Positions 15,045 to 33,570 of a stretch of 64,000 bases of DNA are shown one piece after another. The notes under the pieces were generated by a model. That model did no database searches and was not told the origin of the DNA. It was given only the letters and a program-made list of their open reading frames with translations. The stretch spans positions 222,448 through 286,447 of the forward strand of contig JBAYIQ010000001.1 in the NCBI GenBank assembly GCA_041665545.1. The letters are read 5' to 3'. This stretch comes from Patescibacteria group bacterium. GTDB lineage: Bacteria; Patescibacteriota; Patescibacteriia; UBA1558; GWA2-36-10. Position 1 is the first letter of the stretch, and every line of letters begins with the position of its first letter. Made by a program: the position numbers and the translations under genes.

Positions 15045-15090
15045 AATTACGTGGGGCTATAATATTATTTTAAAAACCAACCAATCGTCT

Positions 15091-15711
15091 TTATGTATGT
15101 TTTGTATTATTTAAAAGAATGAACCTAACTAAATTATTAAATATTTCCATTCCTTCATTTTGAGGACTTATATTTTCTGGGTGAAATTGAAAGCCAAATT
15201 GTTGTTTTCCTTGAACTTGGATAATTTCACAACCATCAATAGAACTAGCCAGGCAAACAAGAGTTTCTGGAATTTCTTGAACCCCAAATCGATGTTTTTC
15301 TGAGACAGTATAATCATTTTTATTTTGAAAAATTGAATGTCTGGCTTTGGCTGTAATTTTTACCAAACCTTCTCGTTTCTGAGATAATTTAACTAATTTA
15401 GCACCATAAGCATAACATAAAACTTGAAACCCATAGCAAATACCAATCACCGGAATAGAGGTATTACGAATGAGTTCAATCTCATCGATGTTTTCCGAAG
15501 CATTTAAAGAATGACCATCTGATAAAATAATTAATTGACAATCATTAAGGTCACAATTTTTTATATCTTGAAACATAATGTTTCTAACTTTATATCCAGT
15601 TAACAAAGTAACGTATTCGCTTAGCGAATCTGCGCCGTTATCAATCAATGCTACATTTACCGAAGCGATATTCCTTTCTGTTGTATTATAATTTTCTATC
15701 ACTTGTCTCAT
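15091..15711 (-). CDS. Class I glutamine amidotransferase, stand-alone (PabA/TrpG-like fold)
   Basis: 206 aa. Catalytic triad context GICYGFQ (Cys) and FQFHPE (His, Glu). Confidence 0.65.
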   Translation of the reverse strand: MRQVIENYNTTERNIASVNVALIDNGADSLSEYVTLLTGYKVRNIMFQDIKNCDLNDCQLIILSDGHSLNASENIDEIELIRNTSIPVIGICYGFQVLCYAYGAKLVKLSQKREGLVKITAKARHSIFQNKNDYTVSEKHRFGVQEIPETLVCLASSIDGCEIIQVQGKQQFGFQFHPENISPQNEGMEIFNNLVRFILLNNTKHT

Positions 15712-15713
15712 AA

Positions 15714-16625: not shown

Positions 16626-16626
16626 T

Positions 16627-18456
16627 TTATTTTTGGTTTTTAATTATATACTCAGCTTGTTTTTCTATTGTAGGTAAGTTTATAATATCATTAATGGCGA
16701 CATCAATCTTGAATTTATTTTGTAATTCTAAAGCCAATGAAGTCAACAATAATGAATTTCCGCCCACCTTGCTAAATTCTGTCTTAGTACCACAAACATC
16801 AATATTTAACAATTTTTTCCAAATTTTTACTATATTACGCTCTACTGCATTCTTTGGTTTAACATTTTTTTCTTCTCCAAAATTAGGTTTAAAGGTATCC
16901 ACAATAAATTTTCGATCAATCTTTCCAGTGGCGGTTAATGGCACGCTGTCAAGTTGATAAAAATAAGTTGGAATCATATAAGACGGTAATGTTTTTAGCA
17001 AATATTCTTTTATTAAATCTGAACTTACAGATTTATTACCCTTAGTAGTATAGTAAGCAATAATTTGAGATTCTTTTTCTTCGTGTATAATCGGCATCAC
17101 AACACTCTTATCAATAAAATAAAAATTATCTATTACGGATTCAATTTCATTCAATTCTATTCTATACCCTTTAATTTTAATTTGAAAATCATTCCTTCCC
17201 AGAAATTCAATCGGCCCACCAACCATTTTCCTACCCAAATCTCCTGTCTTAAATACTCTGCCTCGCTTCGTCACTGGATCAGTTATAAATACCGCATTAG
17301 TCTTTTCTTGCTGATTTAAATAACCTAACGCAAGATAATCGCTCTTATAAACTAACTCGCCAATTTCACCATTTTTGACCTCCCGACCATTATTATCCAA
17401 AAGATACACTTTGGTATCTTCTACCGGATAACCAACGGGAACGGTAGCCTGATTTATTTTGGTGGTTTTATCAATAAAGTACTGCAGAGTAACTGTGGAT
17501 TCAGTTGGCCCCAATCCATTAATAAAAACGCAGTTATCATTGAAATGCAATTTATAAGCTTCAACATCATTTATTAAAACTGACTCTCCTCCCATTACCA
17601 CCAACCGGACACTATCCATTAAATTTTTTTCCTTTATATTGCTAATAAAATAACGATATAAGGTTGGAACTGAGTGAAAAATAGTTATTTTTTCTTTTCC
17701 AATCCAAGCGGTTAATTTTTCGACTGCACCTAATTCCTTCATGTCGTAAGGATACAATGTTGCCCCATTTAATAAGGCACCAAAGATATCCATAATAGAT
17801 GCATCAAAACCATATGTTGAGAATAAGGTAAGTTTATCAAAGGGACTAATTTCTAGATTATTAGTATACGTACGGATAAAATGTAAAACATTGCGGTGAT
17901 TTTGAATAACACCCTTTGGTTTTCCTGTTGATCCTGAAGTATATAATATATAAGCACATTGAGAAGGGTCTATCATTATCCCTAAATTTTTCGCTTCTTC
18001 CTCATTATCAAGTTCATCCACATTAATGATAAAAACCCGCTTATTTGGCAAATCAATCGTGAGACTTTTGGCTAAATTATAGTTAAGATTATTGGTCAAA
18101 ATAATATCCCCACCTGAATCAGAAACTATATACTCAAGTCGATCTAACGGATGAGCAGGATCAAGAGGAACATAAGCATTCCCTGATTTAAGAACAGCTA
18201 TAATTGCAATAATCATTTGAAAATCATGTTCGAATAATAAATATACTCGCTGAGAAATTCCTTCTTTATTGTACTTTAATATTTGATTGGCAACTATATT
18301 CGCTTTATTATTAAGCTCTTGATAAGAAAGGACACGAGTCTTAGTTACTATAGCATTCTTAATTGAAAAATCGGCAACCTGATTTTCAAATCGGGTTACT
18401 ATGGATTGATTTATTTCTTCTTTAGGAAATTGATTATTATTCTTATTTATTTTCAT
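16627..18456 (-). CDS. Stand-alone NRPS-like adenylation plus peptidyl-carrier (A-T) didomain protein
   Basis: 609 aa. Adenylation motifs A3 YTSGSTGKPKGV, A4 FDAS, A5 NGLGPTESTV, A7 FKTGDLG and A8 GRNDFQIKIKGYRIELNEIE, plus a C-terminal carrier motif FSKVGGNSLLLTSL (phosphopantetheine-binding Ser). Confidence 0.85.
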   Translation of the reverse strand: MKINKNNNQFPKEEINQSIVTRFENQVADFSIKNAIVTKTRVLSYQELNNKANIVANQILKYNKEGISQRVYLLFEHDFQMIIAIIAVLKSGNAYVPLDPAHPLDRLEYIVSDSGGDIILTNNLNYNLAKSLTIDLPNKRVFIINVDELDNEEEAKNLGIMIDPSQCAYILYTSGSTGKPKGVIQNHRNVLHFIRTYTNNLEISPFDKLTLFSTYGFDASIMDIFGALLNGATLYPYDMKELGAVEKLTAWIGKEKITIFHSVPTLYRYFISNIKEKNLMDSVRLVVMGGESVLINDVEAYKLHFNDNCVFINGLGPTESTVTLQYFIDKTTKINQATVPVGYPVEDTKVYLLDNNGREVKNGEIGELVYKSDYLALGYLNQQEKTNAVFITDPVTKRGRVFKTGDLGRKMVGGPIEFLGRNDFQIKIKGYRIELNEIESVIDNFYFIDKSVVMPIIHEEKESQIIAYYTTKGNKSVSSDLIKEYLLKTLPSYMIPTYFYQLDSVPLTATGKIDRKFIVDTFKPNFGEEKNVKPKNAVERNIVKIWKKLLNIDVCGTKTEFSKVGGNSLLLTSLALELQNKFKIDVAINDIINLPTIEKQAEYIIKNQK

Positions 18457-18740
18457 AGTTTACTCAGTTTCTAGAATCTAGCTTAATAGCACTGTTAACT
18501 AGTTGATTAAAAACTTGGTGGGTATTTTTAAAAACTCAGAACTTATCTGATTAACCCGCTGGTATTTTCATTAGCACCTCGTCCCCAGGGGCTTCTTAAA
18601 TAAGTAAAATAAACCCTGGCTCTTGTTGATATTAATAAACGGTTTGTTTTGAGCCATTGCTCTACCTTGAAGTTCCATGAGATTATCATACAGCCGTCTA
18701 TATGATTATAGCCGTCTATTTACACACTTTCATTATAGAC

Positions 18741-18768
18741 CAAACAAAAAAGCTGTCAAGAGACAGCT
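18741..18768 (-). terminator. Rho-independent terminator for the histidine kinase gene
   Basis: Stem agctgtc/gacagct (18751-18768) with a 4-nt loop. On the minus strand it is followed by tttttgtttg. Confidence 0.5.
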
Positions 18769-18794: not shown

Positions 18795-21605
18795 CTAAGA
18801 CTGCATTTCTTCTTTATTCGGCTCACCGCCACTGACTGGTATCACAAACTGGAAAATACTCCCCTTTTCTTTGCCAGCACTCTCTACCCATATTTGACCA
18901 CCATGCTCTTTGATAATCTTCTGAGCGATGAATAAGCCCAAACCAGAACCACCAGTGTGAATCTGCGCCGCGCCACTAGCGCGCACAAATTTTCTAAATA
19001 AATTTTTGGCTTCCTCGGGGTCTATACCAATACCAGTATCTTGCACTTGGAAATGAAAATTTTCACCTTCAATAAAAGCGCTAACTTCAATCTGCCCTTT
19101 GGGCGTATATTTTATGGAATTATCAATCAAGTTCAAAATCACTTCGCGCAATTTATCAGAATCAGCGGCCACCAATGGCAAGGCCGGCTTTGATTTTTTG
19201 TAAATCAACTTCACGCCTTTTTTGTCTGACTCATTGTGTAGCTCGGCAATGACACTATCAATCATGTCGCTAATCTGCAAGGGCTTTTTTTCTATTTTTA
19301 ATCTTCCGGACTCAATGCGCGACACATTCAAAAATATATTGACCAAGCGAGCCAAGCGAGCGGCGCTTTCAAATAAATCTTTGATTACTTTGCCAACTTT
19401 TGGCGTTACCGGCCCAAAATCTCCATCAGAAATCATAGACAAGTAGCCCTTAAGCGCTGAAATTGGTGTGCGCAACTGGTGAGAAGCAATGGACAAAAAC
19501 TCTGATTTGGCTTGATCCAACTCGCGCAAGCGCATATTAGCAATTTGCAAATCTTGATTGGTTGTTTGTAAATTATTATATAAGCGCAAGTTTCTGGACA
19601 CAATGCCCACTTGGCTGGTCAGAGCCGTCATGGTGTCTAAATCCAGTGAAGTCACTTTTGATTTTTCTACAGCCAACAAAAAATGAATAATACCAATTAT
19701 TTTATCTTCCGAAAAAATTGGAAAGCCAACTATTGCTTTGACCCCCAAGGCCTCCTGCACTTTATCCATGACCAACTTATCAACTGGAGGTGAAAAGAAA
19801 TCCGACATTTTGTCAGAATCATTTCTTGTTCCGGATAATACTGTCTTGACGCCCAAAGAATAGCCCGCCTCTAATTTGGCTTCAAACTTTTTGGGATCCT
19901 GCCCCAAAATTTGCGTCACTAGTTTAGTCTGTTCACTCTCTGTGATTGCCCCAATACGTAAAACATTGGTTCGCTCATCCACAAAGCTCAAAACACCACC
20001 TACATAGCCAAACTCAGAATAAATACTGTTAGCAATCATTTGATTAATCTGCTTGAGGTCCATGGTGCGACCTACTTTATTGGTCACGGCCTGCATGGCT
20101 GTCAAAAACTTATTGCGTTGTTCTAGACCTACATTTGCTATTTTTAAACTTTTTGTCTTAGCATCAACCTTGACTTGCAAGTCACGCTTTTGTAACTGAA
20201 CTTCTTCGTAGAGTTTGGACTTCTCAATTGCTGTGGCAATTTGGGGAGTCAAAATTTTCAAAAAATTAATGTCGTCTTGACTGTAAAGATCGCCAGAGCT
20301 TTTTGCAGAAAAAAATAACATTGAAGTTAAACTCCCATCTTCTCCAGAAACGGGAACTATCATCTCTATTTTTAAATTTTCTGCCTCTTGAATAAAATTA
20401 CCTAAAATTTTATAATAAGGAACTTCTGAGCTTATATTACTATGGTCTCTTATTAATTCCTCAACGATAATAAGTTCCTTTTTATTTATGATAAATTGAA
20501 TAAAATTTATATTAAACTTTGGAGGGGCACTATCTAGTTGAGAGCTGGCTATTAATATCCATTCCCCATTTTTTAATATTAATGACGAAATTAATCTAAT
20601 TTTTAACTGATCAGACAACAAATTGACTAAAGCCAATGAAAATTTAGCCAAATCAATCTCTTTGGCAACTACCGAACTAGCTTTCTGAAGTAACTTCTGA
20701 TAATCTACCCTGTTCTTATAAAATATACGGTCGGTCAAACGAGCAAAAATACTCTTCAAGGGGTCAAGAGTCAAGACGATAACTAAAGAAGTTACAACAA
20801 AAATTATTGCATTGCCGGACTGGTTTTCTCTGCTCAAGTATGTTCCTGATAAAAAAACCACCATTGCAAAAAATGATGCAAACAAAGCTACCAAAATTCC
20901 GTATAAAACACTTCTAATCAAAACTAAACGAATGTCCATTAATCTGTACTTAACAATCGCATATGTGGTAAATCCTACCATGAAGATAGTTAAAACTTGC
21001 CCAGACCAATTAATTGTGAAAATGCCAAACCAAGGTAACAATAAATTAGATATAAAAGCTAAATTGCTGGATAGTAAATAACCAGAAAAAACATATTTTA
21101 CCTGCAATTTTTTTAACCCCTCAAGTTTTTTAATCTTACTATTAAGATTATAAAAAGCTTGAAAAAAGTGGTAGAAAAAATAAACTACATACAAAATATA
21201 CAACTTACCAAAATATATAATGTTTTCACCGTCAACAACTGTTTTAGCACTAAATATAATTCTATCCGTAAAAAGAATCATACCGTTTATAAGTATAAAA
21301 AAAACGGATACAAATATTATGTATTTCGGGTTAAGTTTCCCGCCCTCTGGAAAAACGATTGAAAAAAACAAAAAAGCTGGTGATGTAAACGTCGCAAACA
21401 CATACAATAGTTTGCATAAAAAAACTATATTAGCTTGATCAGAAAGTCTATACAATATCATCCCTGTACCCCAAAATATAATAGCTACAATAACAAATAA
21501 ATAACTTCTATTTACGGATGCATGTTTATTATTTTTATATATAAAATAACCTAATAATATATTAAGGATAAGTACAACTAAAATGATTATATTAATGTAA
21601 TCCAT
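18795..21605 (-). CDS. Sensor histidine kinase with N-terminal multi-TM (HisKA_7TM-like) domain, GAF-like region, HisKA and HATPase_c
   Basis: 936 aa. N-terminus is multi-pass. H-box EFLSIASHQLRTPISALKGY. C-terminal ATPase G-boxes (GIGIDPEE, GGSGLGLFIAQKI). Confidence 0.8.
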   Translation of the reverse strand: MDYINIIILVVLILNILLGYFIYKNNKHASVNRSYLFVIVAIIFWGTGMILYRLSDQANIVFLCKLLYVFATFTSPAFLFFSIVFPEGGKLNPKYIIFVSVFFILINGMILFTDRIIFSAKTVVDGENIIYFGKLYILYVVYFFYHFFQAFYNLNSKIKKLEGLKKLQVKYVFSGYLLSSNLAFISNLLLPWFGIFTINWSGQVLTIFMVGFTTYAIVKYRLMDIRLVLIRSVLYGILVALFASFFAMVVFLSGTYLSRENQSGNAIIFVVTSLVIVLTLDPLKSIFARLTDRIFYKNRVDYQKLLQKASSVVAKEIDLAKFSLALVNLLSDQLKIRLISSLILKNGEWILIASSQLDSAPPKFNINFIQFIINKKELIIVEELIRDHSNISSEVPYYKILGNFIQEAENLKIEMIVPVSGEDGSLTSMLFFSAKSSGDLYSQDDINFLKILTPQIATAIEKSKLYEEVQLQKRDLQVKVDAKTKSLKIANVGLEQRNKFLTAMQAVTNKVGRTMDLKQINQMIANSIYSEFGYVGGVLSFVDERTNVLRIGAITESEQTKLVTQILGQDPKKFEAKLEAGYSLGVKTVLSGTRNDSDKMSDFFSPPVDKLVMDKVQEALGVKAIVGFPIFSEDKIIGIIHFLLAVEKSKVTSLDLDTMTALTSQVGIVSRNLRLYNNLQTTNQDLQIANMRLRELDQAKSEFLSIASHQLRTPISALKGYLSMISDGDFGPVTPKVGKVIKDLFESAARLARLVNIFLNVSRIESGRLKIEKKPLQISDMIDSVIAELHNESDKKGVKLIYKKSKPALPLVAADSDKLREVILNLIDNSIKYTPKGQIEVSAFIEGENFHFQVQDTGIGIDPEEAKNLFRKFVRASGAAQIHTGGSGLGLFIAQKIIKEHGGQIWVESAGKEKGSIFQFVIPVSGGEPNKEEMQS

Positions 21606-21609
21606 TTGA

Positions 21610-22713
21610 CTAAGATAAAATATATTTTAAATAATCATCACTAATTGGTCTACCGAAAGATCTAAATCGTGCCGGTTCTATGCCAATGACATTCGCCATT
21701 TTTTTTATCCTAATAATTTGTTCCTTATTTGTATCGCCTATTGTGGTGCAATTACTATCTAATGCGGCAAGCGTTATTAATTCTCCCATACAGCTAAATA
21801 TATCCCCATCATCTGTTAACCCTAAATCAAAATTATATTTAATATTTTTATAATTACAAACACCACCCTCTATAACCAATGTCCGATGATTTTTAGAATT
21901 AATTTTTTTTGATGCATTTAGTGGTTGTGCATCATCTATAATAATTGTCCCCTCCTTCAACATGTTGCTAGATTGTATTATAGAGTAAGGTGCGTTTGTG
22001 GCTGTAATAATTATATCGGCTTTTTTTATAATATCTAATGAGCTACTATAACTTAAAATTTTTTCCGACGATAAATTAAATTTACTTTTTAATTTTTCCA
22101 TATCTTTGTCAACCAAAATAAACTTTTTAAAATGGTCAGTTAAGACTGCATAACATGAGGAGCCAATTGAACCCGCGGCCCCAACAATACCAATTGTTAA
22201 TTCTTTGCTAGTCAAATTTTTCATTCTTATTGCATTATTTGAAACCACCCATGCCGTGTAAGAATGTCCCGTTGTTAATCTACAATTAATTTTATCTTTA
22301 ATATCTAAACCATTTCTAGTAAATGACGCACTCAGTGCTCCTAAACCAATGATCTTGGCTCCTAATTTTTCAGCAAACTTTGCTGCTTTAAGAATTTTTT
22401 TTGTGGCCAACTCTCTATTTTTAGTCATGTCCGAAGCATCCATTGGTGACCCAATAAACAAGCCCCTCTTTTCAATATTACTATATTTAAGGCCGTATAT
22501 GTAACTCAGTCTTATTGGAAATAAATATTTACCTATAAAACTTAATATTTTGTATGGAACTCGATTATTAAGCAAGGAAAATTTCCTATTGAGATCGTGA
22601 TAATCCCTAGAATGCACAATGAAAACATAGTCTGCAGAAATATTTAACTTTTTAACCAATTTAATTGAGATATTCTTTGGCAAAAAATTTATAAAAAAAT
22701 CAATCAACAACAT
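21610..22713 (-). CDS. Putative NAD(P)-binding oxidoreductase; family not resolved
   Basis: 367 aa with Rossmann-type glycine motif IGIVGAAGSIGSS in the central region. Confidence 0.35.
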   Translation of the reverse strand: MLLIDFFINFLPKNISIKLVKKLNISADYVFIVHSRDYHDLNRKFSLLNNRVPYKILSFIGKYLFPIRLSYIYGLKYSNIEKRGLFIGSPMDASDMTKNRELATKKILKAAKFAEKLGAKIIGLGALSASFTRNGLDIKDKINCRLTTGHSYTAWVVSNNAIRMKNLTSKELTIGIVGAAGSIGSSCYAVLTDHFKKFILVDKDMEKLKSKFNLSSEKILSYSSSLDIIKKADIIITATNAPYSIIQSSNMLKEGTIIIDDAQPLNASKKINSKNHRTLVIEGGVCNYKNIKYNFDLGLTDDGDIFSCMGELITLAALDSNCTTIGDTNKEQIIRIKKMANVIGIEPARFRSFGRPISDDYLKYILS

Positions 22714-22740
22714 AATCTTATATTTAATAAAATGTATTCG

Positions 22741-23613
22741 TTAATAATATTTAGTAACCTTTGCAATATGTGGCATTTCGGATTTAAATTTATTCTTTTT
22801 GTGCATTTCTAATACAGCGTCAACGATAAATAAGTTTTTATTTTCATTATTTCTTAAAAAGCCAAAACTAGTAATATCTTGTATTTGCTTAGCACTATAG
22901 CCCTGATCTTTCGCCTCAATTATTATTTCTGCTTCTAAATAACTAAAACCCAATTCATCTTCGTCTGTTTGATTTTTCCAGAGACCAGCGGTTGGTGCCT
23001 TACTTATAATATTATCTGGCACATTCATAAATGAAGCAATTTCTCTAACGTGCCGCTTTGACAAATCGCCAATCGGACTTATGTCAACCTGTCCATCTCC
23101 CCTTTTAGTAAAATAGCCCAAAGCATAATCCTCGTCCTTATTACCTGTTCCCAATATTAAACTATCTAGAGCGGCAGCATATCTAGACAAAATAATTGCC
23201 CTAATTTCGCTTGCAACATTACCTTTATCATAATTATTCCTAACAATACCCTTCAATAAACCACAAAAAGATTCAATTATTGATGATATATCAATGACTT
23301 TATAATCAATGGCTAATGTTTTAGCAATATTAATGCCAATTTTAGTATCATTAATATTGTTAGTACTAGAAGGCATTATTAATCCACACAAAGACAATTC
23401 TTTTTTACCATTTTTATATTTATAATCATCAAATGCTGCTTTTGCTAAATAAGCCACTGTCGTAGAGTCAACTCCACCACTCAAACCAATAACCCCGCCC
23501 TTTTTATTAGCATTTTTTATTTCATCTACTATAAAATTCTGTATCTCCTGAGCAACAATTGCCGTTTTAATTTTGGGCAATTTAATTTTTTTTTCTATCT
23601 TTTCTAAATTCAT
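22741..23613 (-). CDS. nadE: NH3-dependent NAD+ synthetase
   Basis: 290 aa with PP-loop GLSGGVDSTT. Size fits single-domain NadE. Confidence 0.7.
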   Translation of the reverse strand: MNLEKIEKKIKLPKIKTAIVAQEIQNFIVDEIKNANKKGGVIGLSGGVDSTTVAYLAKAAFDDYKYKNGKKELSLCGLIMPSSTNNINDTKIGINIAKTLAIDYKVIDISSIIESFCGLLKGIVRNNYDKGNVASEIRAIILSRYAAALDSLILGTGNKDEDYALGYFTKRGDGQVDISPIGDLSKRHVREIASFMNVPDNIISKAPTAGLWKNQTDEDELGFSYLEAEIIIEAKDQGYSAKQIQDITSFGFLRNNENKNLFIVDAVLEMHKKNKFKSEMPHIAKVTKYY

Positions 23614-23640
23614 ACTATATACAAAAAATAACCAATTTAT

Positions 23641-25362
23641 TTATACAATATACTTATTTAAAATATTCTTTCTTCTCAACTTCAACGTAATAGTCAACAT
23701 TCCATTCTCCACACTAAATTCCTCAGCAATTAACTTAAAACTACTAATTTTTTCATTTTTTGACAGATCTTTTAACGATTCGTCAATGATCTGTGTATAA
23801 AGATTTTTCACAGCGCTCAGCTCCAATACTTCTGGTAATTTAAACTCTATATTTGCCTGTTCACACCACTTTTTTAATTCAGCCATATCTGGAACAATAA
23901 AAGCTGACAAAGCTTTTTGCTTGTCGCCATAAACCATGCTTTGGCTAATATATTTGCTGGCGTTTAAGTCATACTCTATTGGCTCAGGAAAAATATTTTT
24001 GCCAGTTGACAACACTATCACATCTTTGGCTCGACCAATGATGGTCAAAAATCCATCATTATCAAAAAAACCCAAATCTCCAGTGCGTAGCCAAGCATCG
24101 GCGTCAAAAGCTTCCTGGCTCAATATTTCATTGTCATAATAACCAGACATCACATTATCGCCTTTGAGCAATATTTCTTTTTCCGATGACAACTTAATTT
24201 GATTGCAAACCAAAGGCAAACCCACTGTGCCAAATTTATAATTATCCGGATGATTGACCGCCACTATTGGCGAGGCCTCGGTCAAGCCATAGCCCTCAAT
24301 CAGCTTCAAGCCCAAGCTATCAAAAAATTTGGCAATAGCTGGATTGAGCGAAGCTCCACCGGAGATAGCCAAGCGTAATTTACCACCCAAAATACTCCTT
24401 ATTTTCTTAAGTACCAAATAGTCTAAAATCTGATACTGCCATTTTTCTATAAAATTAAGCTGTCTTTTTTTCTTGGCATCAACCAAATTTAAGGTGCGAT
24501 AAAATAATTTTTTTTTAAAATTACTACCGCTCTTGATTTGATCAAAAACTTTGGCGTATATTTTTTCAAATATTCTAGGTACACAAGGCAAAACAGTGGG
24601 CTGAACCAACTTAATATCATCAATCATGGTCTTGGCGCTCACTGCGTAATAAATACTACAACCCGTAAAAAGCGGGCTATAATAGCCAGCCATTCTTTCA
24701 AAAGCATGTGACAAGGGCAAAAAGGAAAAAAATTTATCACTTTCGTAGATTGGTACATTGCGTCGGGCTGATTGAGCATCGCTGACTAAATTCTTCTGCG
24801 AAAGCATCACACCTTTGGGGTCACCCGTAGTCCCAGAGGTATAGATAATAGTATGCAAATCATCTTCCTGAGAAATAGCTTCAATATCAACTAATTTACT
24901 CTTATCAAAAACTGGCCAAGGCAATACTCTTTTATCCTCAATGTCTTGTGTCAGACCAACTACATATATTTCTTTGAGTGGTAAAGATAAGATGTTATTT
25001 TTATATTTGGCAAACAATTCTTGATTAATCAATAAATATTTAGCACCAGAATGATTAACTATGGTTTCCAAATATTTTTCTGGATAAGTATAGTGCACGG
25101 GCACTAAAACTAAACCCAAAGTAGCCACGGCCAGATCGGCCATGACCCACTCCGCACTATTGGGCAACATGACGGCTATTTTTTCACCCCTCACATAGCC
25201 CTTTTTTTGCCAATATTCGGCCAACTGACTGCGCAAATTGTTGAGCTCTTGATAACTAATTGTTTGATACTGACCTTGAACCAAAAAACCCAAAGCCGGA
25301 CGCAGACCAAAATCGCGAACTACTTCCAGAAAATTAGCAATGATTGTGCTGGACATAGGCAA
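23641..25362 (-). CDS. Long-chain fatty acid--CoA ligase (AMP-binding family)
   Basis: 573 aa with AMP-binding motif YTSGTTGDPKGV and C-terminal ligase core. Confidence 0.8.
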   Translation of the reverse strand: MPMSSTIIANFLEVVRDFGLRPALGFLVQGQYQTISYQELNNLRSQLAEYWQKKGYVRGEKIAVMLPNSAEWVMADLAVATLGLVLVPVHYTYPEKYLETIVNHSGAKYLLINQELFAKYKNNILSLPLKEIYVVGLTQDIEDKRVLPWPVFDKSKLVDIEAISQEDDLHTIIYTSGTTGDPKGVMLSQKNLVSDAQSARRNVPIYESDKFFSFLPLSHAFERMAGYYSPLFTGCSIYYAVSAKTMIDDIKLVQPTVLPCVPRIFEKIYAKVFDQIKSGSNFKKKLFYRTLNLVDAKKKRQLNFIEKWQYQILDYLVLKKIRSILGGKLRLAISGGASLNPAIAKFFDSLGLKLIEGYGLTEASPIVAVNHPDNYKFGTVGLPLVCNQIKLSSEKEILLKGDNVMSGYYDNEILSQEAFDADAWLRTGDLGFFDNDGFLTIIGRAKDVIVLSTGKNIFPEPIEYDLNASKYISQSMVYGDKQKALSAFIVPDMAELKKWCEQANIEFKLPEVLELSAVKNLYTQIIDESLKDLSKNEKISSFKLIAEEFSVENGMLTITLKLRRKNILNKYIV

Positions 25363-25466: not shown

Positions 25467-27137
25467 TCACTTACCCAAAGCTTGTACCTCTTGTTCTACC
25501 ACTTCATCATCTATTCTGGCAAACAATGGCTCAACTTTAGCAATCTTAATAGTTGGCAACAAAGCATACTGCCAGCCGGCTGTTTGGTTTCTCTCTTGAC
25601 CAAGCATTGTCAATATTTTATCAGTCGAATTTGGTATAAATGGATTAAGTAGGGTCGCTAGGTTATAAATTACTTGGCTAGCCACAAACAATGAGCGCTC
25701 TGCTGAAGCCCGATCAGTAGTTATCTGCTTCCAAGGTGAGGTCTCTTCTAAGTATCGATTGGCGCTTTCGGCTAGATTCAAAATAATTTTTATACTGTCT
25801 CTAAATTTTGCCTTAGCAATATTCTCTCCCACACTGCCAAAGGCCTGCTCAGTCAACTTCAATAAATCTTTGGCCGGCTTATCAAGCTTGATGTCTGATT
25901 CGTGTAAACCATCCGGACAATGCTTGTTGATAAAAGAAAAAACTCTATTAACCAAATTACCAAACTTGCCAATCAGTTCAGAGTTGACTTTGACCTGGTA
26001 CTCGGCCCAAGAAAAATCCGCGTCCGATGTCTCTGGACCGCTGATCACCAAATAATATCGAATGGTATCGGCCTCAAATTTGGACAAAAAGTCTGGCAAC
26101 CACACTGCCCAATGACGGCTCTTGGAAAATTGCTTGTTTTCTATGGTCAAAAATTCTGACGATATAATATAATCAGGTAAGTGCAAATCTCCATGGCCCA
26201 AAAGCATGGCTGGCCAAATCACGGCATGAAAAGGAATATTATCTTTACCATGGAAATAATAATGCTGAGCCGAATCATTCTGCCAAAAATCTTGCCATAA
26301 TTTAGCATCACCCCTGTTTTGGGCCCATTCACAACTGGCTGATAAATAGCCAATCACGGCCTCAAACCAAACATAAATCTTCTTGCCCTCGTAACCGGGC
26401 AAGGGTATGTCTATGCCCCAATTAGTATCGCGAGTAATTGCTCGATCATGCAAGCCCTCTTGCAAAAAATTTAAAGTAAAATTTTTGGCATTGGCTCGCC
26501 AACCCTGACTCTTGGCTACCCACTTTTCCAGTTGTTTTTGGAAAGCTGATAATTTTAAGAAAAAATGTTCAGATGGTTTCCAGACTGGTGTAGAACCGCA
26601 GGTTTTACAGCGTGGCTTAATCAACTGATTGGCATCAAGTAATGACCCGCAATTATCACACTGATCACCACGAGCGCCTTCAAAATGACACTTGGGACAC
26701 TCGCCCTCAACATAACGATCTGGTAAAAATCTTTGACATTTTTCACAAAAAGCCAGATCTTCAAATTTGGAATAAATATAACCTTTTTTTTGCAGATCCA
26801 AAAAAAATTCTTGCACTACTTGCTCGTGATTTTTGGTAGTGGTCTTGGTGTAGCAGTCAAAAGAAAAATTTAATTTGTTAAGAAAAATATCTTTGAATTC
26901 GGCGTGATATTTTTCAGCAATTGTCTCTGGCGCCACGTTTTGCTTATCAGCTTCCACGGCAATCGGCGTGCCATGGCAATCACTGCCCGAGACCATCAAG
27001 ACATCATGCCCAGCTAGACGGTGATAGCGCGCCACGATATCCCCGCCCAACAGTCCAGCTAGATGCCCCAAATGCAAAGAACCATTGGCATAGGGCCAAG
27101 CCAAACCAATAAAAATTTTATTTTTTTTCTTATTCAT
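25467..27137 (-). CDS. metG: Methionyl-tRNA synthetase
   Basis: 556 aa. HIGH-type motif PYANGSLHLGH, Zn-knuckle cysteines CPKCH...CDNCG and KMSKS-type KFSKS. Confidence 0.9.
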   Translation of the reverse strand: MNKKKNKIFIGLAWPYANGSLHLGHLAGLLGGDIVARYHRLAGHDVLMVSGSDCHGTPIAVEADKQNVAPETIAEKYHAEFKDIFLNKLNFSFDCYTKTTTKNHEQVVQEFFLDLQKKGYIYSKFEDLAFCEKCQRFLPDRYVEGECPKCHFEGARGDQCDNCGSLLDANQLIKPRCKTCGSTPVWKPSEHFFLKLSAFQKQLEKWVAKSQGWRANAKNFTLNFLQEGLHDRAITRDTNWGIDIPLPGYEGKKIYVWFEAVIGYLSASCEWAQNRGDAKLWQDFWQNDSAQHYYFHGKDNIPFHAVIWPAMLLGHGDLHLPDYIISSEFLTIENKQFSKSRHWAVWLPDFLSKFEADTIRYYLVISGPETSDADFSWAEYQVKVNSELIGKFGNLVNRVFSFINKHCPDGLHESDIKLDKPAKDLLKLTEQAFGSVGENIAKAKFRDSIKIILNLAESANRYLEETSPWKQITTDRASAERSLFVASQVIYNLATLLNPFIPNSTDKILTMLGQERNQTAGWQYALLPTIKIAKVEPLFARIDDEVVEQEVQALGK

Positions 27138-27993: not shown

Positions 27994-28575
27994 TTATTTT
28001 TTGATTTTAAACTTAGTCGACAAATAGTTTTGCCACTCTTTATCATTATCCATCAAGCCCTGTATTTGTTGTCTCAATAAAGTGGCTTTGTCTATTTTGG
28101 TAGATGCGCTTTTCCAATCCAAATATTCATTGATCTTGCGTGACAAACGTAAAGTATATTTGATGTTGTATAGTTCGGCCAAATTTTCCTGCCCCAAAGA
28201 TTCTAGAAAGTTGGCTACTTTTTCCAAAGCATTCTGGTTCTGATAACGCTCCAGGCGCATTTTCTTGGCTACTGTTTTGTCCACCAATAAATGCTCCAAG
28301 GCCTGATCAATTTTGGCACCAGCTGGCAACAAACACAAAATATCTTTATTCTTGGACACGGCCCAAGCCAGCCAATAGCCACCCTGAGCATCTAGTCGCT
28401 GGCCATAAATCACCAAGGCATCTACTTTGTCCATTGGCAAGCTGGTGGCATCAGAGCTGGCTTTTTTGGTGGAGGTTTCACTGATGACAGTGGCTCCGAC
28501 GCGACGCAAATACTGCAAAATTTGCTGACTATTTTGATCCGTATCGCTGGTGTTGCTGTAAAAATAAATATGCAT
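27994..28575 (-). CDS. Hypothetical protein
   Basis: 193 aa ORF tightly packed between neighbours. No recognisable motif. Confidence 0.4.
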   Translation of the reverse strand: MHIYFYSNTSDTDQNSQQILQYLRRVGATVISETSTKKASSDATSLPMDKVDALVIYGQRLDAQGGYWLAWAVSKNKDILCLLPAGAKIDQALEHLLVDKTVAKKMRLERYQNQNALEKVANFLESLGQENLAELYNIKYTLRLSRKINEYLDWKSASTKIDKATLLRQQIQGLMDNDKEWQNYLSTKFKIKK

Positions 28576-28587: not shown

Positions 28588-29553
28588 TTATATTAGTTCG
28601 CCAATAAAATTCTGTTGGCCGATTTGCTCAAAAGAAGCAATCTTATCCTTGTTGGCCATGGCCCACATGGCCTTGGCCATGGCTGATTCAAAAGTGCAAG
28701 CTGTCATGATTATTGCTTCATCAGGACCGTGTACCTGAATAGGGTGATAAAGAAATACTGGAATTTTAGAATCTTTGATTTGTTTTATTTTGGCTGGCTC
28801 TAGTTTGTTTTGGTGATTGAGCTTGATAAACAAAGCATCATAATTATTCTGTTCAAAATTTGTTAGCCAAGTAAGGCCCGGTAAATCGTCAAAAACAAAA
28901 ATATTGGCTTTGATTTTATTGTAAATCTTTGGTTTTCCAGTGTGATAGCCAAGGCCAGATTTGACGCTAATACCAAAATCTACTCGACCCCAATAGTTAT
29001 CATCAATGCTAGCAAATAAATTTAAGCCCGTATCCTTGTCACAAGTGGCACGCACTCCCGGAATAAGCCGAGTGCCAAACATAATAGCTGGCGTAGGCAA
29101 ACTGTAATCCAACACTTGAAAAGCATTTATTAAATTGGAGCGCAAACCCAAATCGTTTTTTTGACCAACAATATTTTTGCTTAGCTCAGCTGTGCCACTA
29201 CGAATGGCTGAGGTCAAAACCACTGTCTTTTTTATATTCTGCAGTAAAAAACTTAAGGCGTTGGCCGTCATTAATAGCTGGTCTGAGCGCGAAACAACCA
29301 CAAAACCACTGCTAGAGTCCAAGCGTTCAGCAATCTGCTTGGCCATTTCTTGCCAATGTTCCGGTGTCAAAATACTGTCTTCTGGGGCAATAAAAATCGG
29401 CTCCACTTCGGCTAATAACCTAAGCTCGGGCATTTGCTTGAGCCAGATTTCAATATCATCAGGACTCTGGATAGTAAGCAACCTTTTGTTCTGATCAAGT
29501 AAAGCTGTGCCACCAGCCAACAACAAAGTAATTTTTTTTCTTACTTTAGTCAT
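28588..29553 (-). CDS. L-asparaginase/GatD-like family protein; probable start at the internal Met (MTKVRKK)
   Basis: Motif LLLAGGTAL resembles the asparaginase TGGT signature. The first 13 residues of the track ORF overlap the upstream gene. Confidence 0.45.
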   Translation of the reverse strand: MTKVRKKITLLLAGGTALLDQNKRLLTIQSPDDIEIWLKQMPELRLLAEVEPIFIAPEDSILTPEHWQEMAKQIAERLDSSSGFVVVSRSDQLLMTANALSFLLQNIKKTVVLTSAIRSGTAELSKNIVGQKNDLGLRSNLINAFQVLDYSLPTPAIMFGTRLIPGVRATCDKDTGLNLFASIDDNYWGRVDFGISVKSGLGYHTGKPKIYNKIKANIFVFDDLPGLTWLTNFEQNNYDALFIKLNHQNKLEPAKIKQIKDSKIPVFLYHPIQVHGPDEAIIMTACTFESAMAKAMWAMANKDKIASFEQIGQQNFIGELI

Positions 29554-30241
29554 TGATTTTTTCTTTAGGAGAAATAATAAAACCAAAAACAACTAGATTA
29601 ATAAATAGAGTAAATAATGGGCCCATGTGAATGGAAGTAAAATTATCTTTATACATGGAAAATAGATTAAAGTAACTACCAAAAGCAGTACCCATGATAA
29701 CTCCGAATAAAACCAAGCCGATTTGGGTTCTAAATATCCCGTCTGATTTTATATATTTATCGACTAGAAAATAGATTGCTGAAAAAATTACTAAAACCAT
29801 GAAAATAGTATATATTATATAACCAGCATTATTATAAGTTGCAAAATTTATTGATCCAATTCGGACGCTATCTACAAAATAATTGTAGCCAAATATAGTA
29901 TATATAATAATTAAAATACTAACAATATTTATTAACCATTTAAATAATTTATTTATTTGAATTTTTTTATAAGGAAAATAGAGAGAAAAGTAGAATAAAA
30001 AAACTATAACTAACCAGGCCATGGTGTATGGTAGACTAGAGAAAAATCTCAAAGCATCTTCGCTTAAGCTAATATTATAAAAAACTAAGCTAGCAGACCA
30101 GAGAAAAACAAAAAATGTCATCAAACTAAAATATAAATTTATTTTATTTTTTTGGCCACGAAAAAAAACAAACAAACTCATGCCTAAATTTGTCAAACCA
30201 GTAATTGATAAAATTAAATTTTGTGAGTCAGTTAAAATCAT
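29546..30241 (-). CDS. Stand-alone 7TM sensor-like membrane module, tandem paralog 1 of 3
   Basis: 231 aa multi-pass membrane protein sharing the N-terminal pattern (GL.NL.M.FFVF.RG..NKINLYF.L.TFF.F.W) and C-terminal ISPKEKI with the two neighbours and with the N-termini of 31671-33056 and the kinase at 18795-21605. Confidence 0.6.
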   Translation of the reverse strand: MILTDSQNLILSITGLTNLGMSLFVFFRGQKNKINLYFSLMTFFVFLWSASLVFYNISLSEDALRFFSSLPYTMAWLVIVFLFYFSLYFPYKKIQINKLFKWLINIVSILIIIYTIFGYNYFVDSVRIGSINFATYNNAGYIIYTIFMVLVIFSAIYFLVDKYIKSDGIFRTQIGLVLFGVIMGTAFGSYFNLFSMYKDNFTSIHMGPLFTLFINLVVFGFIISPKEKIND

Positions 30242-30245
30242 ATCT

Positions 30246-30944
30246 TTAATTACTTATTTTTTCTTTAGGGGAAATAACAAAAAACACAACTATGAAATTC
30301 ATTAAAACCGTAAAAATTGGGCCAAGCCAATCAAACCTATAATCATTAAAATATTCAATAAATAAATCAAAATAACTCCCAAATGCCAATCCAATAATAA
30401 TCGCAAACAACAACATTTTAATTTGCTGCTTTACCACGCCCTCTGCCAACTTATATTTTCTGAATAATTTACATAAAGCCCAAACTGCCACTATAACAAA
30501 ATAAACGGCATAAAGAAAAAATCCCGCCTCATTGTAATAAGAAATATACTCATAATTGCTATAGGCCCTAACCGTCTCCGTGATAAATCCCTTGGTATAA
30601 ATAAAAAATGATAAAATTATCGCCATCAATAAAATAAGAAAATGATAACTTTTTTTTAGTTTTTCAATTTGGTAGGGAAAGTGATGAACAAAATAAAATA
30701 AGGAAATAACAATTGCTAACGCGGAAACATAAGTGCTCCTAGCAAACAAACCAACCAAATTTATATCTGAAATCGAGCGTGAGATTAATAGTCCCAAACT
30801 CCAAGTAAAATTAAAAAAGGTCAGTAAACTAAAATATAAATTTATTTTATTTTTTATACCTCGTCTAAAAACAAAAAAAGTCATAAACAAATTAACCAGA
30901 GCAGCAATCAATAAAATAAAATTTTGAGTTGAAAAAATTATCAT
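30246..30944 (-). CDS. Stand-alone 7TM sensor-like membrane module, tandem paralog 2 of 3
   Basis: 232 aa. Same architecture and conserved termini as paralog 1. Confidence 0.6.
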   Translation of the reverse strand: MIIFSTQNFILLIAALVNLFMTFFVFRRGIKNKINLYFSLLTFFNFTWSLGLLISRSISDINLVGLFARSTYVSALAIVISLFYFVHHFPYQIEKLKKSYHFLILLMAIILSFFIYTKGFITETVRAYSNYEYISYYNEAGFFLYAVYFVIVAVWALCKLFRKYKLAEGVVKQQIKMLLFAIIIGLAFGSYFDLFIEYFNDYRFDWLGPIFTVLMNFIVVFFVISPKEKISN

Positions 30945-30948
30945 ATCT

Positions 30949-31644
30949 TTAATTACTTATTTTTTCTCTAGGGGAAATGATGAAATAAAATACTACCGCA
31001 TTCATAAACAAAGTGAACACCGGACCAAACCAAGCATAATGATAATTAGCAAAATAACAAAGTATCAAATCAAAGTAAGCGCCAAAAACCAAACCTATCA
31101 AAATAGCAATAAATAATATTAAAGTTTGTTTTTTGAAATAAATGTCTGGCATTTTAATTTTGCGATACAAGTTTAGTAGAGCTAACCCAGCCACAAAAAT
31201 AAAATAAACCCCATATAAAATATAAAACGGCTTGTTTACATACAGCGTGTATTCATTTCTGGCTAAATCTTTGGTAAAGCTCAATACAAACGCTCCTTTT
31301 GTATAAACGATTATTGATAAAATAAAGGCTGGGGCTAAAAGCACCAGATCATAAATTTTTTTATTTTTACTAGTTTGTAATGGAAAATATTTGGAAAAAA
31401 AGTAGAGCGACAAGGATATCCCCAAGGCAATGGGATAAGCCAAAAGTGCTCCGCCATAAAACCAAAAGTTAATATTTTCACCCATTCGAGCAATCAATAT
31501 TGTCATGGTCCACAGAAAATTAAAAAAAGTAAGCAGACCAAAATACAAGTTTATTTTATTATTAAAACCACGGCTAATAACCACAAAAAACATCATTAAA
31601 TTAACCAAGCCCGCAATCAATAACAATAAATTTTCTATACTCAT
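30949..31644 (-). CDS. Stand-alone 7TM sensor-like membrane module, tandem paralog 3 of 3
   Basis: 231 aa. Same architecture, ending ISPREKISN. Confidence 0.6.
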   Translation of the reverse strand: MSIENLLLLIAGLVNLMMFFVVISRGFNNKINLYFGLLTFFNFLWTMTILIARMGENINFWFYGGALLAYPIALGISLSLYFFSKYFPLQTSKNKKIYDLVLLAPAFILSIIVYTKGAFVLSFTKDLARNEYTLYVNKPFYILYGVYFIFVAGLALLNLYRKIKMPDIYFKKQTLILFIAILIGLVFGAYFDLILCYFANYHYAWFGPVFTLFMNAVVFYFIISPREKISN

Positions 31645-31670
31645 ATTTATTAATTAATATTGAAAAATAA

Positions 31671-33056
31671 TTATTTTTCTTCCTTATTAGCCATGGCCTG
31701 CTGATAAAGCAACAAACTGCCAATGGCAATATCCAAATATTTGTTCACTTCCTTCAAAAAATCCAGTTGCTGTTGGTAAATCAGCTTTTTATTGTTATCC
31801 AGCATGACTACTCCCAAAAGCTGATTATTATAGTATATTGGGAAAGATATGTCAATATGATGATTAACCAGCTCTTGGCTCAGCTGGGGATCAAGCCCCA
31901 AGTAGTGCACTTCTGGACTATGAAGTAAATCTTGATTTTTAGCCAAATATTTTAAAAGCAAATCCTGCTCCATGTGCAGTGTGCGCTCGCCCACTGGAAA
32001 TACTTGGTGGAAAAAATTAGCATCCCCACGCTTGGACAAATAAATAAATATTTCTTTGTAATCAATCACTTGGGCAATTTCTTTGGACAGTGATGACATC
32101 AATCTATTGAGATCACGACTAGAGCGCAAGATCACGGCAATATTATTTTGCGCTTGAATTATTCTCTCCAAAGGATGATAAATAAAAAACTTAGCCGCCA
32201 CACTGGCTAGACCAAATAAAATAGGTGCGGTCAAACCAAAAAATATCAAAAACAAAATACTATTTATGCTGCGAGAAAAATCCACCTGTACTGGCCCGCT
32301 GAGTACTAAATACAGCAAAGCATAAACCAAGCCAGTCAAAAGCAAGCGCACCAAGTTGACCAAGGTTTTGTAAAAACTTATTTTCAAATCCAAAAAGCGG
32401 TAGCGAAACAAAGCATACACCACAATAGCGGTAAATATCACGCTACTATTAACTCCCAGATAATAAAACTCCACCACTCCCAAAAGTGGTAAGAAAAAAA
32501 TAAAAATCAAAGCCGAGATAGCGGTCAAAGCCGTGGCCACAAAAATATAGTCAATTTGCTTTTTGACTATCTGATCATAGCGACTGCGCTGACGAATCAA
32601 CACTACCAGGCCCCAAGACATGAGGGTGAGAAAATAGGCCGCAAAATAAAAATAAATCGGCCCTGGTACATAAGCGACACTGTTTTGGCCGACGACAATA
32701 CTGCTGACATTATATTTGCTAAAAACAAAGGGCGACATGATATAAGCGGGCAAGAAAAAAAGATGCTGTTTGCTGCGAACTTTTTTCCAACCATCAACCA
32801 GTAAGTAGCTAAGCCAGACAAAGACCGGGGCAATATACAGTGTTGGCAATAAACCAGCGCGCACTCCCAGTAGCAAGGATTGACTGCGTAATAAAAATAA
32901 AATATTAAACAGTTCACTGCTCTGCCATAGCCACAACAAAAAAACCATGATGAAAATTGGCCAGCGCCTTTGCTTATTTTTGTTGAGGAGTATAAAAAAC
33001 AACAAGCCCAGATTGATCAGCCAAACTACTGCTAAAATTAAAGTATCTAGTGTCAT
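31671..33056 (-). CDS. 7TM sensor-like membrane domain fused to a C-terminal GAF-like cytoplasmic domain; no kinase domain
   Basis: 461 aa. Multi-TM N-terminus related to the three tandem paralogs, with a roughly 160 aa soluble C-terminus. Confidence 0.55.
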   Translation of the reverse strand: MTLDTLILAVVWLINLGLLFFILLNKNKQRRWPIFIMVFLLWLWQSSELFNILFLLRSQSLLLGVRAGLLPTLYIAPVFVWLSYLLVDGWKKVRSKQHLFFLPAYIMSPFVFSKYNVSSIVVGQNSVAYVPGPIYFYFAAYFLTLMSWGLVVLIRQRSRYDQIVKKQIDYIFVATALTAISALIFIFFLPLLGVVEFYYLGVNSSVIFTAIVVYALFRYRFLDLKISFYKTLVNLVRLLLTGLVYALLYLVLSGPVQVDFSRSINSILFLIFFGLTAPILFGLASVAAKFFIYHPLERIIQAQNNIAVILRSSRDLNRLMSSLSKEIAQVIDYKEIFIYLSKRGDANFFHQVFPVGERTLHMEQDLLLKYLAKNQDLLHSPEVHYLGLDPQLSQELVNHHIDISFPIYYNNQLLGVVMLDNNKKLIYQQQLDFLKEVNKYLDIAIGSLLLYQQAMANKEEK

Positions 33057-33091: not shown

Positions 33092-33120
33092 AATATAGAG
33101 TTTTTGGGATTATTTGTCAA
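33092..33120 (-). promoter_or_regulatory. Sigma70-type promoter for 31671-33056
   Basis: Minus strand reads TTGACA, a 17-nt spacer, then TATATT, about 35 nt upstream of the ATG at 33056. Confidence 0.45.
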
Positions 33121-33192: not shown

Positions 33193-33268
33193 TGGAGCGA
33201 GTAACTGGATTCGAACCAGCAACCTCTTCCATAGCATGGAAGTGTTCTACCAGCTGAACTATACCCGT
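33193..33268 (-). tRNA. tRNA gene with encoded CCA and anticodon GCU (Ser-type anticodon), but a class I structure with a 5-nt variable loop and tRNA-Gly-like acceptor features
   Basis: Minus strand reads ACGGGTA-TA-GTTC-AGCTGGTA-GAAC-A-CTTCC-ATGCTAT-GGAAG-AGGTT-GCTGG-TTCGAAT-CCAGT-TACTCGC-T-CCA. All invariant positions are present (U8, A14, G18G19, A21, U33, T54T55C56, A58, C61). The acceptor stem pairs 6 of 7, with A1 and C72 mismatched. Pairs C2-G71 and G3-C70 and discriminator U73 are present. Confidence 0.6.
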
Positions 33269-33445
33269 TCCAACTTAGCTTGAAACGCTGGCGGGAGGGA
33301 TTGATACCTCATGATGTGCCCTGGACTTGGACACTGCGGGGGTTTGGAGGGAGAAAGTGCAGTGGAAGTCCATAGGCGGCCGCCAGCGTATTCGGGAACA
33401 AATGATTGCTCACTACCCTAAAATACTAACACTGACAGTTTTTTT
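33269..33445 (-). ncRNA. Candidate structured leader or ncRNA immediately 5' of the tRNA, with its own promoter
   Basis: Minus strand carries TTGACA (RC of 33448-33453), a 16-nt spacer, then TAGTAT. Downstream of this promoter, a long-range 9-bp helix CGCUGGCGG/CCGCCAGCG (plus 33288-33296 with 33400-33408) encloses nested helices UGGACUU/AAGUCCA and CACUGC/GCAGUG and a 21-nt C/U-rich loop containing CCCUCC. Confidence 0.3.
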
Positions 33446-33570
33446 GTCAAGAAAATAGGTATGCCTCCAGTACCAAGAACTAGAGCTTGTTTATTATCTA
33501 GAGTCAACTAATACCACATCTCGCCCCGTAGCGACCCAGCTCCTCGCGAGGAGTTGGGTCGCTTATGGGG

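Follow-up and report, generated by a model that had tools for sequence, protein, structure and literature searches.

Output-less HisKA_7TM sensor modules in a conserved Patescibacteria operon, possibly exchangeable accessory subunits of a 7TM-GAF protein and a histidine kinase

What does a membrane sensor do when the protein that carries it has no output domain? The question is raised by a gene cluster in a stretch of 64,000 nucleotides (nt) of contig JBAYIQ010000001.1 (GCA_041665545.1), from one of the ultrasmall bacteria of the Patescibacteria group, referred to here as the window. On the minus strand, from which the cluster genes are read, three adjacent genes each encode little more than a seven-transmembrane (7TM) bundle; a gene for a 7TM-GAF protein precedes them and a sensor histidine kinase gene follows further downstream. 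We find that these stand-alone modules (m1, m2 and m3 below) are complete, selected, output-less copies of the HisKA_7TM sensor domain, and that their repertoire turns over between related genomes. The genes concerned are listed here, with protein lengths in amino acids (aa).

31671..33056, minus: 7TM-GAF protein, 461 aa; HisKA_7TM, then two more hydrophobic helices and a cytoplasmic domain that is weakly GAF-like
30949..31644, minus: stand-alone 7TM module m1, 231 aa; lineage A1
30246..30944, minus: stand-alone 7TM module m2, 232 aa; lineage A2; the protein chosen for modelling
29546..30241, minus: stand-alone 7TM module m3, 231 aa; lineage B
18795..21605, minus: sensor histidine kinase, 936 aa; HisKA_7TM, two more transmembrane (TM) helices, two GAF regions, HisKA and HATPase_c

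An initial annotation of this DNA had called three genes of about 231 aa with tiny gaps, together with the 461-aa and 936-aa genes, and all lie where it placed them; the gaps are 4 nt at each module-module junction, and 26 nt separate the 461-aa gene from m1. The common N-terminal and C-terminal motifs that it described (RGxKNKINLYF...W and ISPKEKI) are real by alignment. At the DNA level the array is a direct repeat of about 700 nt of which only the ends are still alike (189 nt and 169 nt, 62-71% identity). The label "orphan" had to be dropped, since the modules belong to a tightly packed, conserved operon.

The same annotation took the modules for the membrane sensor domain found at the N-termini of the kinase and of the 7TM-GAF protein, and on this point Pfam and an independent profile agree. 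Against Pfam HisKA_7TM (PF16927; 224 positions, gathering score 28.6 bits), m3 scores 50.2 bits (E-value 4e-13), m2 49.4 bits (7e-13), the kinase 37.5 bits (3e-9) and the 461-aa protein 36.9 bits (4.4e-9). The match of m1 lies under the cut-off (23.1 bits, 7.3e-5), and its kinship is seen from 48% identity to m2 and from an E-value of 1.6e-85 against profile A2. This profile, built from stand-alone family members alone and run against every open reading frame (ORF) of the window, picks exactly five: m1 to m3, the kinase (3.5e-17) and the 7TM-GAF protein (1.3e-9), the next match being at 0.02. A placement at the N-terminus of a histidine kinase fits only the 936-aa protein, in which Pfam finds the kinase core (HisKA 3e-14, HATPase_c 1.7e-27) as well as GAF; the modules stop 8 residues past the seventh helix (TM7), without any other domain, and are cut exactly at the point where the fused and kinase versions go on (...YAIVxYxLxD). 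Pfam 7TMR-DISM_7TM, the other family proposed for comparison, gave no significant match (E-value 0.36). The Leptospira LIC10906 family (NCBIfam NF047679), another related stand-alone membrane protein, matches them weakly (5e-5, 22.9 bits against a cut-off of 200), so that they are not members of it.

The 461-aa protein had been described as a fusion of the same membrane domain to a GAF-like domain. The membrane domain is confirmed; the GAF part is matched only weakly, at 20.2 bits (E-value 9e-4) against a Pfam cut-off of 22.4 bits, and the profile of its orthologues finds the GAF structure 3o5y_A in the Protein Data Bank (PDB) at 1.2e-3. Aligned by hhalign with the GAF-A region of the kinase, the profile of its C-terminal part gave no significant match (E-value 0.034, probability 1.5%). 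We regard the GAF assignment, made from sequence profiles, as weak but consistent. Hydrophobic segments lie at residues 231-254 and 262-293, and the protein has no kinase core. As to the stand-alone modules, NCBI already gives the identical protein the name "histidine kinase N-terminal 7TM domain-containing protein". Homologues of the stand-alone family number 82, nearly all of 220-237 aa, and come almost entirely from metagenome-assembled genomes of Patescibacteria, Parcubacteria, Nomurabacteria or Komeilibacteria. When 1.84 billion representatives were searched with a profile, 3,799 matched at E-value <= 1e-3, and 1,151 of these at <= 1e-10; of the best 150, 58 are 201-250 aa long and about 65 exceed 420 aa and have several domains.

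The AlphaFold2 model of m2 is confident (predicted local distance difference test, pLDDT, 91.3; predicted template-modelling score, pTM, 0.89) and comprises helices at residues 6-27, 33-55, 61-88, 98-115, 139-166, 169-198 and 207-224, with a beta hairpin between helices 4 and 5. Foldseek places the transmembrane domains of class C and class A G-protein-coupled receptors (GPCRs) at the top of its matches, all of them GPCR-type 7TM bundles, and no transporter or enzyme fold is among the listed matches; membership of an unrelated transporter family, which would have spoken against the assignment, was thus not found. As modelled, the modules are compact seven-helix bundles with a GPCR-like fold. 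We claim no homology to GPCRs, as Pfam gives no sequence match to them and identity in the structural alignments is 5-17%. The distribution of Lys and Arg across the loops suggests an N-out/C-in topology. Conservation is uneven over the bundle: mean column entropy is low in TM1 (1.49), the first intracellular loop (ICL1, 1.05), TM2 (1.09) and TM7 (1.16), TM6 being well conserved too, and high in TM4 (2.46), the outer hairpin (2.60) and the first extracellular loop (ECL1, 3.02), with TM5 variable too. Loops on the inner side average 1.78 and those on the outer side 2.54 (p 0.005). This pattern, with TM1, TM2, TM7 and ICL1 conserved and TM4 and the outer parts variable, fits a constant contact face and a variable sensing face. 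The invariant residues of the modules are L, M, W, F, P, G and N, which form no catalytic-type set, and the bundle has neither an internal repeat nor conserved charged residues inside the membrane.

How old is the array? Its members are mutually 34-48% identical; compared with the 7TM domain of the kinase or of the 461-aa protein, their identity is about 20%. Trees that include modules of other genomes unite the stand-alone proteins in one clade apart from the GAF and kinase sensors, and each window module sits in a separate old lineage (A1, A2 or B) common to other genomes. Of the "tandem triplication" that had been proposed, the three adjacent copies therefore stand, and a recent local event does not, given 34-48% identity and at least three old lineages. 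Compared with a close relative (L013; L-numbers denote compared loci and P-numbers representatives from the profile search), the ratio of non-synonymous to synonymous substitution rates (dN/dS) is 0.046 for m1, 0.071 for m2 and 0.112 for m3, neighbouring genes lying at 0.02-0.11. The synonymous rate of the m3 orthologue is 0.23, lower than the 0.49-0.65 of the neighbours.

Context look-ups and a genome scan showed that the arrangement recurs in 27 genome loci and in a number of metagenome contigs. On one strand, GAPDH and CysRS lie upstream, followed by the 7TM-GAF gene (about 454-465 aa), one to three modules, an asparaginase-like gene (about 325-335 aa), a protein of about 190 aa, a Hydrolase_4 hydrolase, a FadD-like ligase, a variable slot and a 7TM-GAF-GAF-HisKA-HATPase_c kinase of about 935 aa. 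One to three modules are the normal state at the array position. The genomes concerned are distant from the window (CysRS about 62% identical, cluster proteins 35-55%). The kinase is downstream in almost every locus with enough sequence, and 7TM-GAF orthologues occur in most related loci; in L012, L015 and L016 modules are found beside the kinase end of the cluster as well. The distant contig L037 (45% GC) has three modules followed by an asparaginase-like gene, a 186-aa gene, hydrolase, FadD, PlsC, HAD and a 7TM kinase, in genes that overlap or abut throughout. In the window, the remaining genes of this region are as follows.

28588..29553, minus: divergent asparaginase-fold protein, 321 aa from ATG 29553; its start overlaps the end of m3 by 8 nt
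27994..28575, minus: 193-aa protein with an N-terminal fold resembling nucleoside 2-deoxyribosyltransferase/DNPH1 and about 55 helical C-terminal residues
27176..27991, minus: alpha/beta hydrolase of Hydrolase_4 (lysophospholipase/monoacylglycerol-lipase) type, 271 aa; Pfam PF12146, E-value 2.5e-18; conserved in the cluster
25467..27137, minus: methionyl-tRNA synthetase (MetRS), a housekeeping gene inserted after the hydrolase in this lineage only
23641..25362, minus: FadD-like long-chain fatty-acid ligase, 573 aa; Pfam AMP-binding, E-value 1e-75; conserved in the cluster
22741-23613, minus: NAD synthetase (NadE), an occupant of the variable slot in the window
21610-22713, minus: acyl-ACP-reductase-like (AAR) dehydrogenase, an occupant of the variable slot in the window

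The asparaginase-like gene directly follows the last module in nearly all loci, including distant L037 and the short contig L039, and the gene after the distant stand-alone module P0145 (partial, on a short contig) is asparaginase-like. Its product matches Pfam Asparaginase (E-value 1e-21) and type I asparaginases of the PDB (3e-12) and falls far below the NCBIfam equivalog cut-offs. The GGT motif is retained; HGTDT reads SRSDQ in the window, the catalytic Lys aligns with Cys, and neither is conserved in 24 orthologues. Because both are lost across orthologues, the protein is not a canonical asparaginase, and by its sequence it may be either a pseudo-enzyme or the bearer of a new activity. The eukaryotic 60-kDa lysophospholipase (PDB 9s7y) shares the asparaginase fold (E-value 2.6e-7). 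The 193-aa protein, always after the asparaginase-like gene, has no family in Pfam or NCBIfam, nor in phmmer and profile searches of the PDB. Its AlphaFold2 model (pLDDT 77) resembles DNPH1 in Foldseek (E-value 1.5e-4, TM-score 0.7 on the target), and its helical C-terminal region conserves NIKYTLRxSxKIxxYLxWK; the Joint Genome Institute labels a homologue "predicted DNA-binding protein". A ribbon-helix-helix C-terminus was rejected, as the model has helices only. The FadD-like ligase matches the NCBIfam models FadD11 and long-chain-fatty-acid-CoA ligase at about 4e-73, below their equivalog cut-offs. MetRS is also inserted in L010, L011, L013 and L015 and is absent from distant loci. Six other genomes carry a PlsC acyltransferase and a HAD phosphatase in the variable slot.

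Around the array, closely related genomes keep their flanks and change their modules. In L010, L011 and L015 the flanking cluster genes are 75-85% identical to those of the window and the module sets are different: L010 holds orthologues of m1 and m2 but not of m3, L011 of m2 only and L015 of m1 only, and the remaining modules of these loci are 40-49% identical to those of the window. L013, at about 93% protein identity and with flanks 88-96% identical, has all three modules (92-95% identical) in the order m1-m3-m2 (L013:8593-10699). Every gene junction in the array is spanned by repeated DNA from the conserved module ends. The kinase sensor is exchanged too. Against L013 the kinase is a mosaic, about 95-96% identical over residues ~370-936 and 25% in the 7TM domain, with a breakpoint near residue 370; when 18795-23649 of the window is set against L013:16595-20616, positions 20496-23649, which also cover the genes for NadE and the AAR-like enzyme, are without a match in nucleotide sequence, and the N-terminus of the L013 kinase has no HisKA_7TM match at E-value <= 0.01. 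The 7TM domain of the window kinase is 60% identical to that of distant L014, which has the same NadE-AAR-kinase order. The 7TM-GAF protein is evenly conserved (92, 86 and 97% across its three parts). The proposal that the modules are diversifying thus needs dividing: orthologues are under strong purifying selection (dN/dS 0.05-0.11), which does not agree with it, and the turnover of repertoire and order and the variation of TM4, TM5 and the outer loops do.

Other phyla join such modules in one chain. Among the profile matches, eleven representatives carry two HisKA_7TM domains in tandem and one (P0109, 1,495 aa) carries four, followed by GAF, usually PAS, HisKA and HATPase_c; P0146 stops after GAF. 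In the four proteins checked, one additional hydrophobic TM helix joins successive modules, which gives each the same topology. Members with a named source belong to Margulisbacteria and candidate division WOR-1. On a WOR-1 contig (L040:10001-15593) a 746-aa 7TM-7TM-GAF protein without a kinase core is encoded immediately upstream of a 1,099-aa 7TM-GAF-PAS kinase. Fusion is a standard sign that separately encoded homologues act together, and it would suggest the same here.

Which function would unite these features? We favour the explanation that each module is an accessory sensor subunit, open to exchange, and that it joins the 7TM-GAF protein, the kinase or both in an assembly, a proposal that we hold to stand at about even chances of being right. 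Indirect support for such heteromers comes from the kinases of other phyla with two or four modules in one chain and from the output-less WOR-1 gene just ahead of a full kinase. Physical assembly, the direction of regulation and the class of ligand are what we infer. The modules would pack side by side in the membrane with their partner, making contact via the conserved TM1, TM2, TM6 and TM7 and the first cytoplasmic loop, and each would draw its ligand specificity from the variable TM4, TM5, outer hairpin and outer loops. The partner's GAF and kinase domains would then receive the occupancy signal, and adding, losing or exchanging modules would retune sensing and leave the signalling core untouched. 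To judge from the neighbours, the signals may be membrane-borne or host-derived lipid-type molecules, because the cluster contains a lysophospholipase-type hydrolase, a fatty-acid ligase, PlsC, HAD and an acyl-ACP-reductase-like enzyme.

Several observations weigh against accessory sensor subunits. The gene that adjoins the last module most closely and most regularly is the asparaginase-like one; the kinase gene lies 8 kb away and is probably in a second transcription unit after a terminator-like hairpin at 25448-25416. Modules occur without a 7TM-GAF gene in L005/L034, L027 and L037, and L005 and L025 have no kinase inside the available sequence. Part of the gene order could be general synteny, CysRS and GAPDH being likewise conserved neighbours. 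The modules are nearer to kinase 7TM domains of other phyla than to that of their own kinase (about 20% identity). Finally, of the parts of a two-component system, the kinase core was found; a nearby receiver-domain regulator was not, as phmmer searches with CheY, whose sensitivity is limited, detected no receiver domain in the ORFs of the window or in the related Patescibacteria-type cluster loci (L001-L036). The response regulator may be encoded elsewhere in the genome.

Could the modules instead serve the enzymes encoded directly downstream? As membrane partners in lipid salvage they would dock or regulate the asparaginase-fold protein and the lysophospholipase-type hydrolase, or bind or flip lipids and so pass lysolipids or fatty acids from the host on to FadD, PlsC and HAD. 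This is the main rival, which we consider somewhat unlikely. The asparaginase-like gene adjoins the last module or overlaps with it in nearly every locus, and the fold of its product includes the eukaryotic lysophospholipase; hydrolase, ligase, PlsC and HAD all belong to the cluster; and the modules persist where the 7TM-GAF gene is absent. According to the literature, Patescibacteria cannot make lipids and the lysolipids of neighbours are a suspected source (PMC11665869, PMC7242380), for which the mechanism of uptake and breakdown has not been identified (PMC7242380, PMC11665869, PMC12455944). A lipid-salvage role would be possible, yet the closest relatives of the modules outside their family are kinase sensors (for instance P0115, 7TM-GAF-HisKA-HATPase_c, E-value 7.7e-34), they lack catalytic-type invariant residues and, among the listed matches, any transporter or enzyme fold, the output-less WOR-1 paralogue adjoins a kinase with no lipid genes near, and modules also sit at the kinase end of the cluster in three loci. 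Sensing and salvage are compatible: the substrates of the enzymes could be the very lipids to which the modules respond. In a combined version, which we rate as unlikely, the cluster would be a locus of Patescibacteria lipid acquisition and remodelling, in which modules bind and possibly flip host lysolipids or fatty acids, feed them to the enzymes and report occupancy to the kinase and the 7TM-GAF protein. That modules and kinase 7TM domains turn over fast would then reflect the lipid repertoires of different hosts.

It had also been suggested that the modules act as decoys, and exact truncation just past TM7, like the presence of output-less paralogues beside full kinases in two phyla, would suit dominant-negative damping, in which the modules either form unproductive heteromers with the kinase or with the 7TM-GAF protein or act as a ligand sponge. 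A decoy, however, is expected to resemble the kinase sensor, to which the modules are about 20% identical and from which they stand apart in a separate old clade; between the window and L013 the three modules held 92-95% identity although the sensor of the kinase was exchanged, and single-chain kinases with several modules argue for cooperative rather than inhibitory use. We therefore think decoys quite unlikely. That the modules are small-molecule transporters or channels, from which kinases merely borrowed a sensor, is very improbable. They are purely membrane proteins encoded beside metabolic enzymes, and kinase sensors derived from transporters exist, such as that of the solute-symporter-fused kinase CbrA, but a single seven-helix bundle without internal repeat or conserved intramembrane charges is not what a transporter would lead one to expect. 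Transporter or enzyme identity was rejected, given the listed structural matches and the missing catalytic-type residues. Scarcely credible, lastly, are functionless annotation artefacts or decaying fragments of kinase genes. Missing output domains and resemblance to kinase 5' ends would be in keeping with decay; dN/dS and constancy of length (about 225-235 aa over dozens of genomes) led us to reject it, and the confident compact model, the conserved family-specific motifs and a conserved operon position with 4-nt gaps and overlapping starts speak against it too.

How is the cluster transcribed? The promoter and terminator calls given here are consensus pattern matches only.

33146-33130, minus: terminator-like hairpin just upstream of the promoter-like site of the operon
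33092..33120, minus: promoter-like site TTGACA-17-TATATT (11/12), 36 nt upstream of the 7TM-GAF start
31827..31855, minus: perfect sigma-70 consensus TTGACA-17-TATAAT, a candidate internal promoter, 183 nt ahead of m1 and within the 3' end of the 7TM-GAF gene
25448-25416, minus: terminator-like hairpin after MetRS
18768-18751, minus: terminator-like hairpin after the kinase

Perfect TTGACA-N16-18-TATAAT sites number two in the 64 kb against 0.07 expected, both on the minus strand: the internal site and a second one at 18732-18759, between the kinase and a set of genes resembling nonribosomal peptide synthetases (NRPS). The internal site is kept at the same position in L010, L011, L013, L015 and L036. 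We nevertheless downgraded it as evidence of separate module regulation, because both hexamers coincide with the conserved GAF peptide IDxxxPIxYN (codons TAT AAT for Tyr-Asn), and the conserved consensus may be a by-product of coding. In the 565-nt region upstream of the operon, Rfam matched a tRNA alone. This tRNA gene (33193-33268, minus; anticodon GCT, Ser, AGY) is 76 nt long and lacks the long variable arm that a bacterial tRNA-Ser is expected to carry. Ahead of it, after a promoter-like site at 33450-33423 with an extended -10 TG, runs a comparatively GC-rich stretch of about 160 nt (33280-33450, minus) without an Rfam match, which could represent a tRNA leader or a small RNA that has escaped annotation.

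Elsewhere in the window, the genes directly after the kinase (14367-18456, minus) form the NRPS-like set: an adenylation-PCP (peptidyl carrier protein) protein of 609 aa, a thioesterase (303 aa), a class I glutamine amidotransferase (206 aa) and a phosphopantetheinyl transferase (225 aa). Its GC content is low (29-32%), it was not seen in the related loci, and it is unusual for a Patescibacteria genome. Two CYTH-domain proteins (10191-10772, 193 aa, and 13110-13685, 191 aa, minus) flank an ABC-F-type ATPase and a peptidase-like gene. At 3-7820 (minus) a reading frame without stops extends for more than 2,606 codons and past the left end of the window; its product, which begins with a signal-peptide or TM-like segment, is probably a giant surface protein.

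How do the modules compare with known systems? HisKA_7TM (PF16927) is an N-terminal 7TM sensor region noted in haloarchaeal kinases (PMC5847659). The modules match its profile over all 224 positions and agree with it in having seven helices and in the domain boundaries; they differ in that a module is a whole protein, without linker, GAF/PAS or kinase core, in arrays of one to three genes. To our knowledge, no ligand is known for any HisKA_7TM member. The LytS-type kinase BtsS binds pyruvate in its 7TM domain (PMC10653868). As there and in 7TMR-DISM proteins, a bacterial seven-helix domain would sense a small molecule in or at the membrane and drive a cytoplasmic output, but those domains belong to other Pfam families and share one polypeptide with their output. 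With eukaryotic GPCRs of classes A and C the modules share the helix arrangement predicted for m2, although a module is a minimal 232-aa bundle with almost no loops or tails; bacteria, as far as we know, have neither G proteins nor arrestins. A function like the one proposed is known from accessory membrane modulators of kinases, such as MgrB or SafA with PhoQ, LiaF with LiaS, YycH and YycI with WalK, and BceAB with BceS. These, like the modules as we propose them, are separate membrane proteins near a kinase that tune it by membrane contacts; they are unrelated to the kinase sensor, however, whereas the modules are sensor-domain paralogues in exchangeable multiples. The domain family, and the annotation of proteins as containing HisKA_7TM, are already known, and in the literature searched HisKA_7TM is mentioned by two papers only, both on archaeal kinases. 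Undescribed in that literature, as it appears, are the stand-alone family as a fixed part of a conserved Patescibacteria operon, the predicted GPCR-like fold of the modules, the rapid exchange of modules and kinase sensor, the fused multi-module kinases and the link of modules to lipid-type enzymes.

Sensor kinases are normally single polypeptides that unite sensor and output. Free-standing, exchangeable sensor genes, together with fused copies elsewhere, point to modular, multi-subunit bacterial membrane receptors, in which inputs would be swapped by gene exchange and the signalling core would stay constant. Few natural proteins for which a GPCR-type fold is predicted with confidence are as small as the modules, and this makes the modules attractive for structural and design work. 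Should they prove to be ordinary accessory sensors, the result would still be a useful annotation of a widespread unnamed operon, and their place beside lysophospholipase-type, fatty-acid-activating and acyltransferase-type genes offers a concrete candidate locus for the question of how Patescibacteria obtain their lipids.

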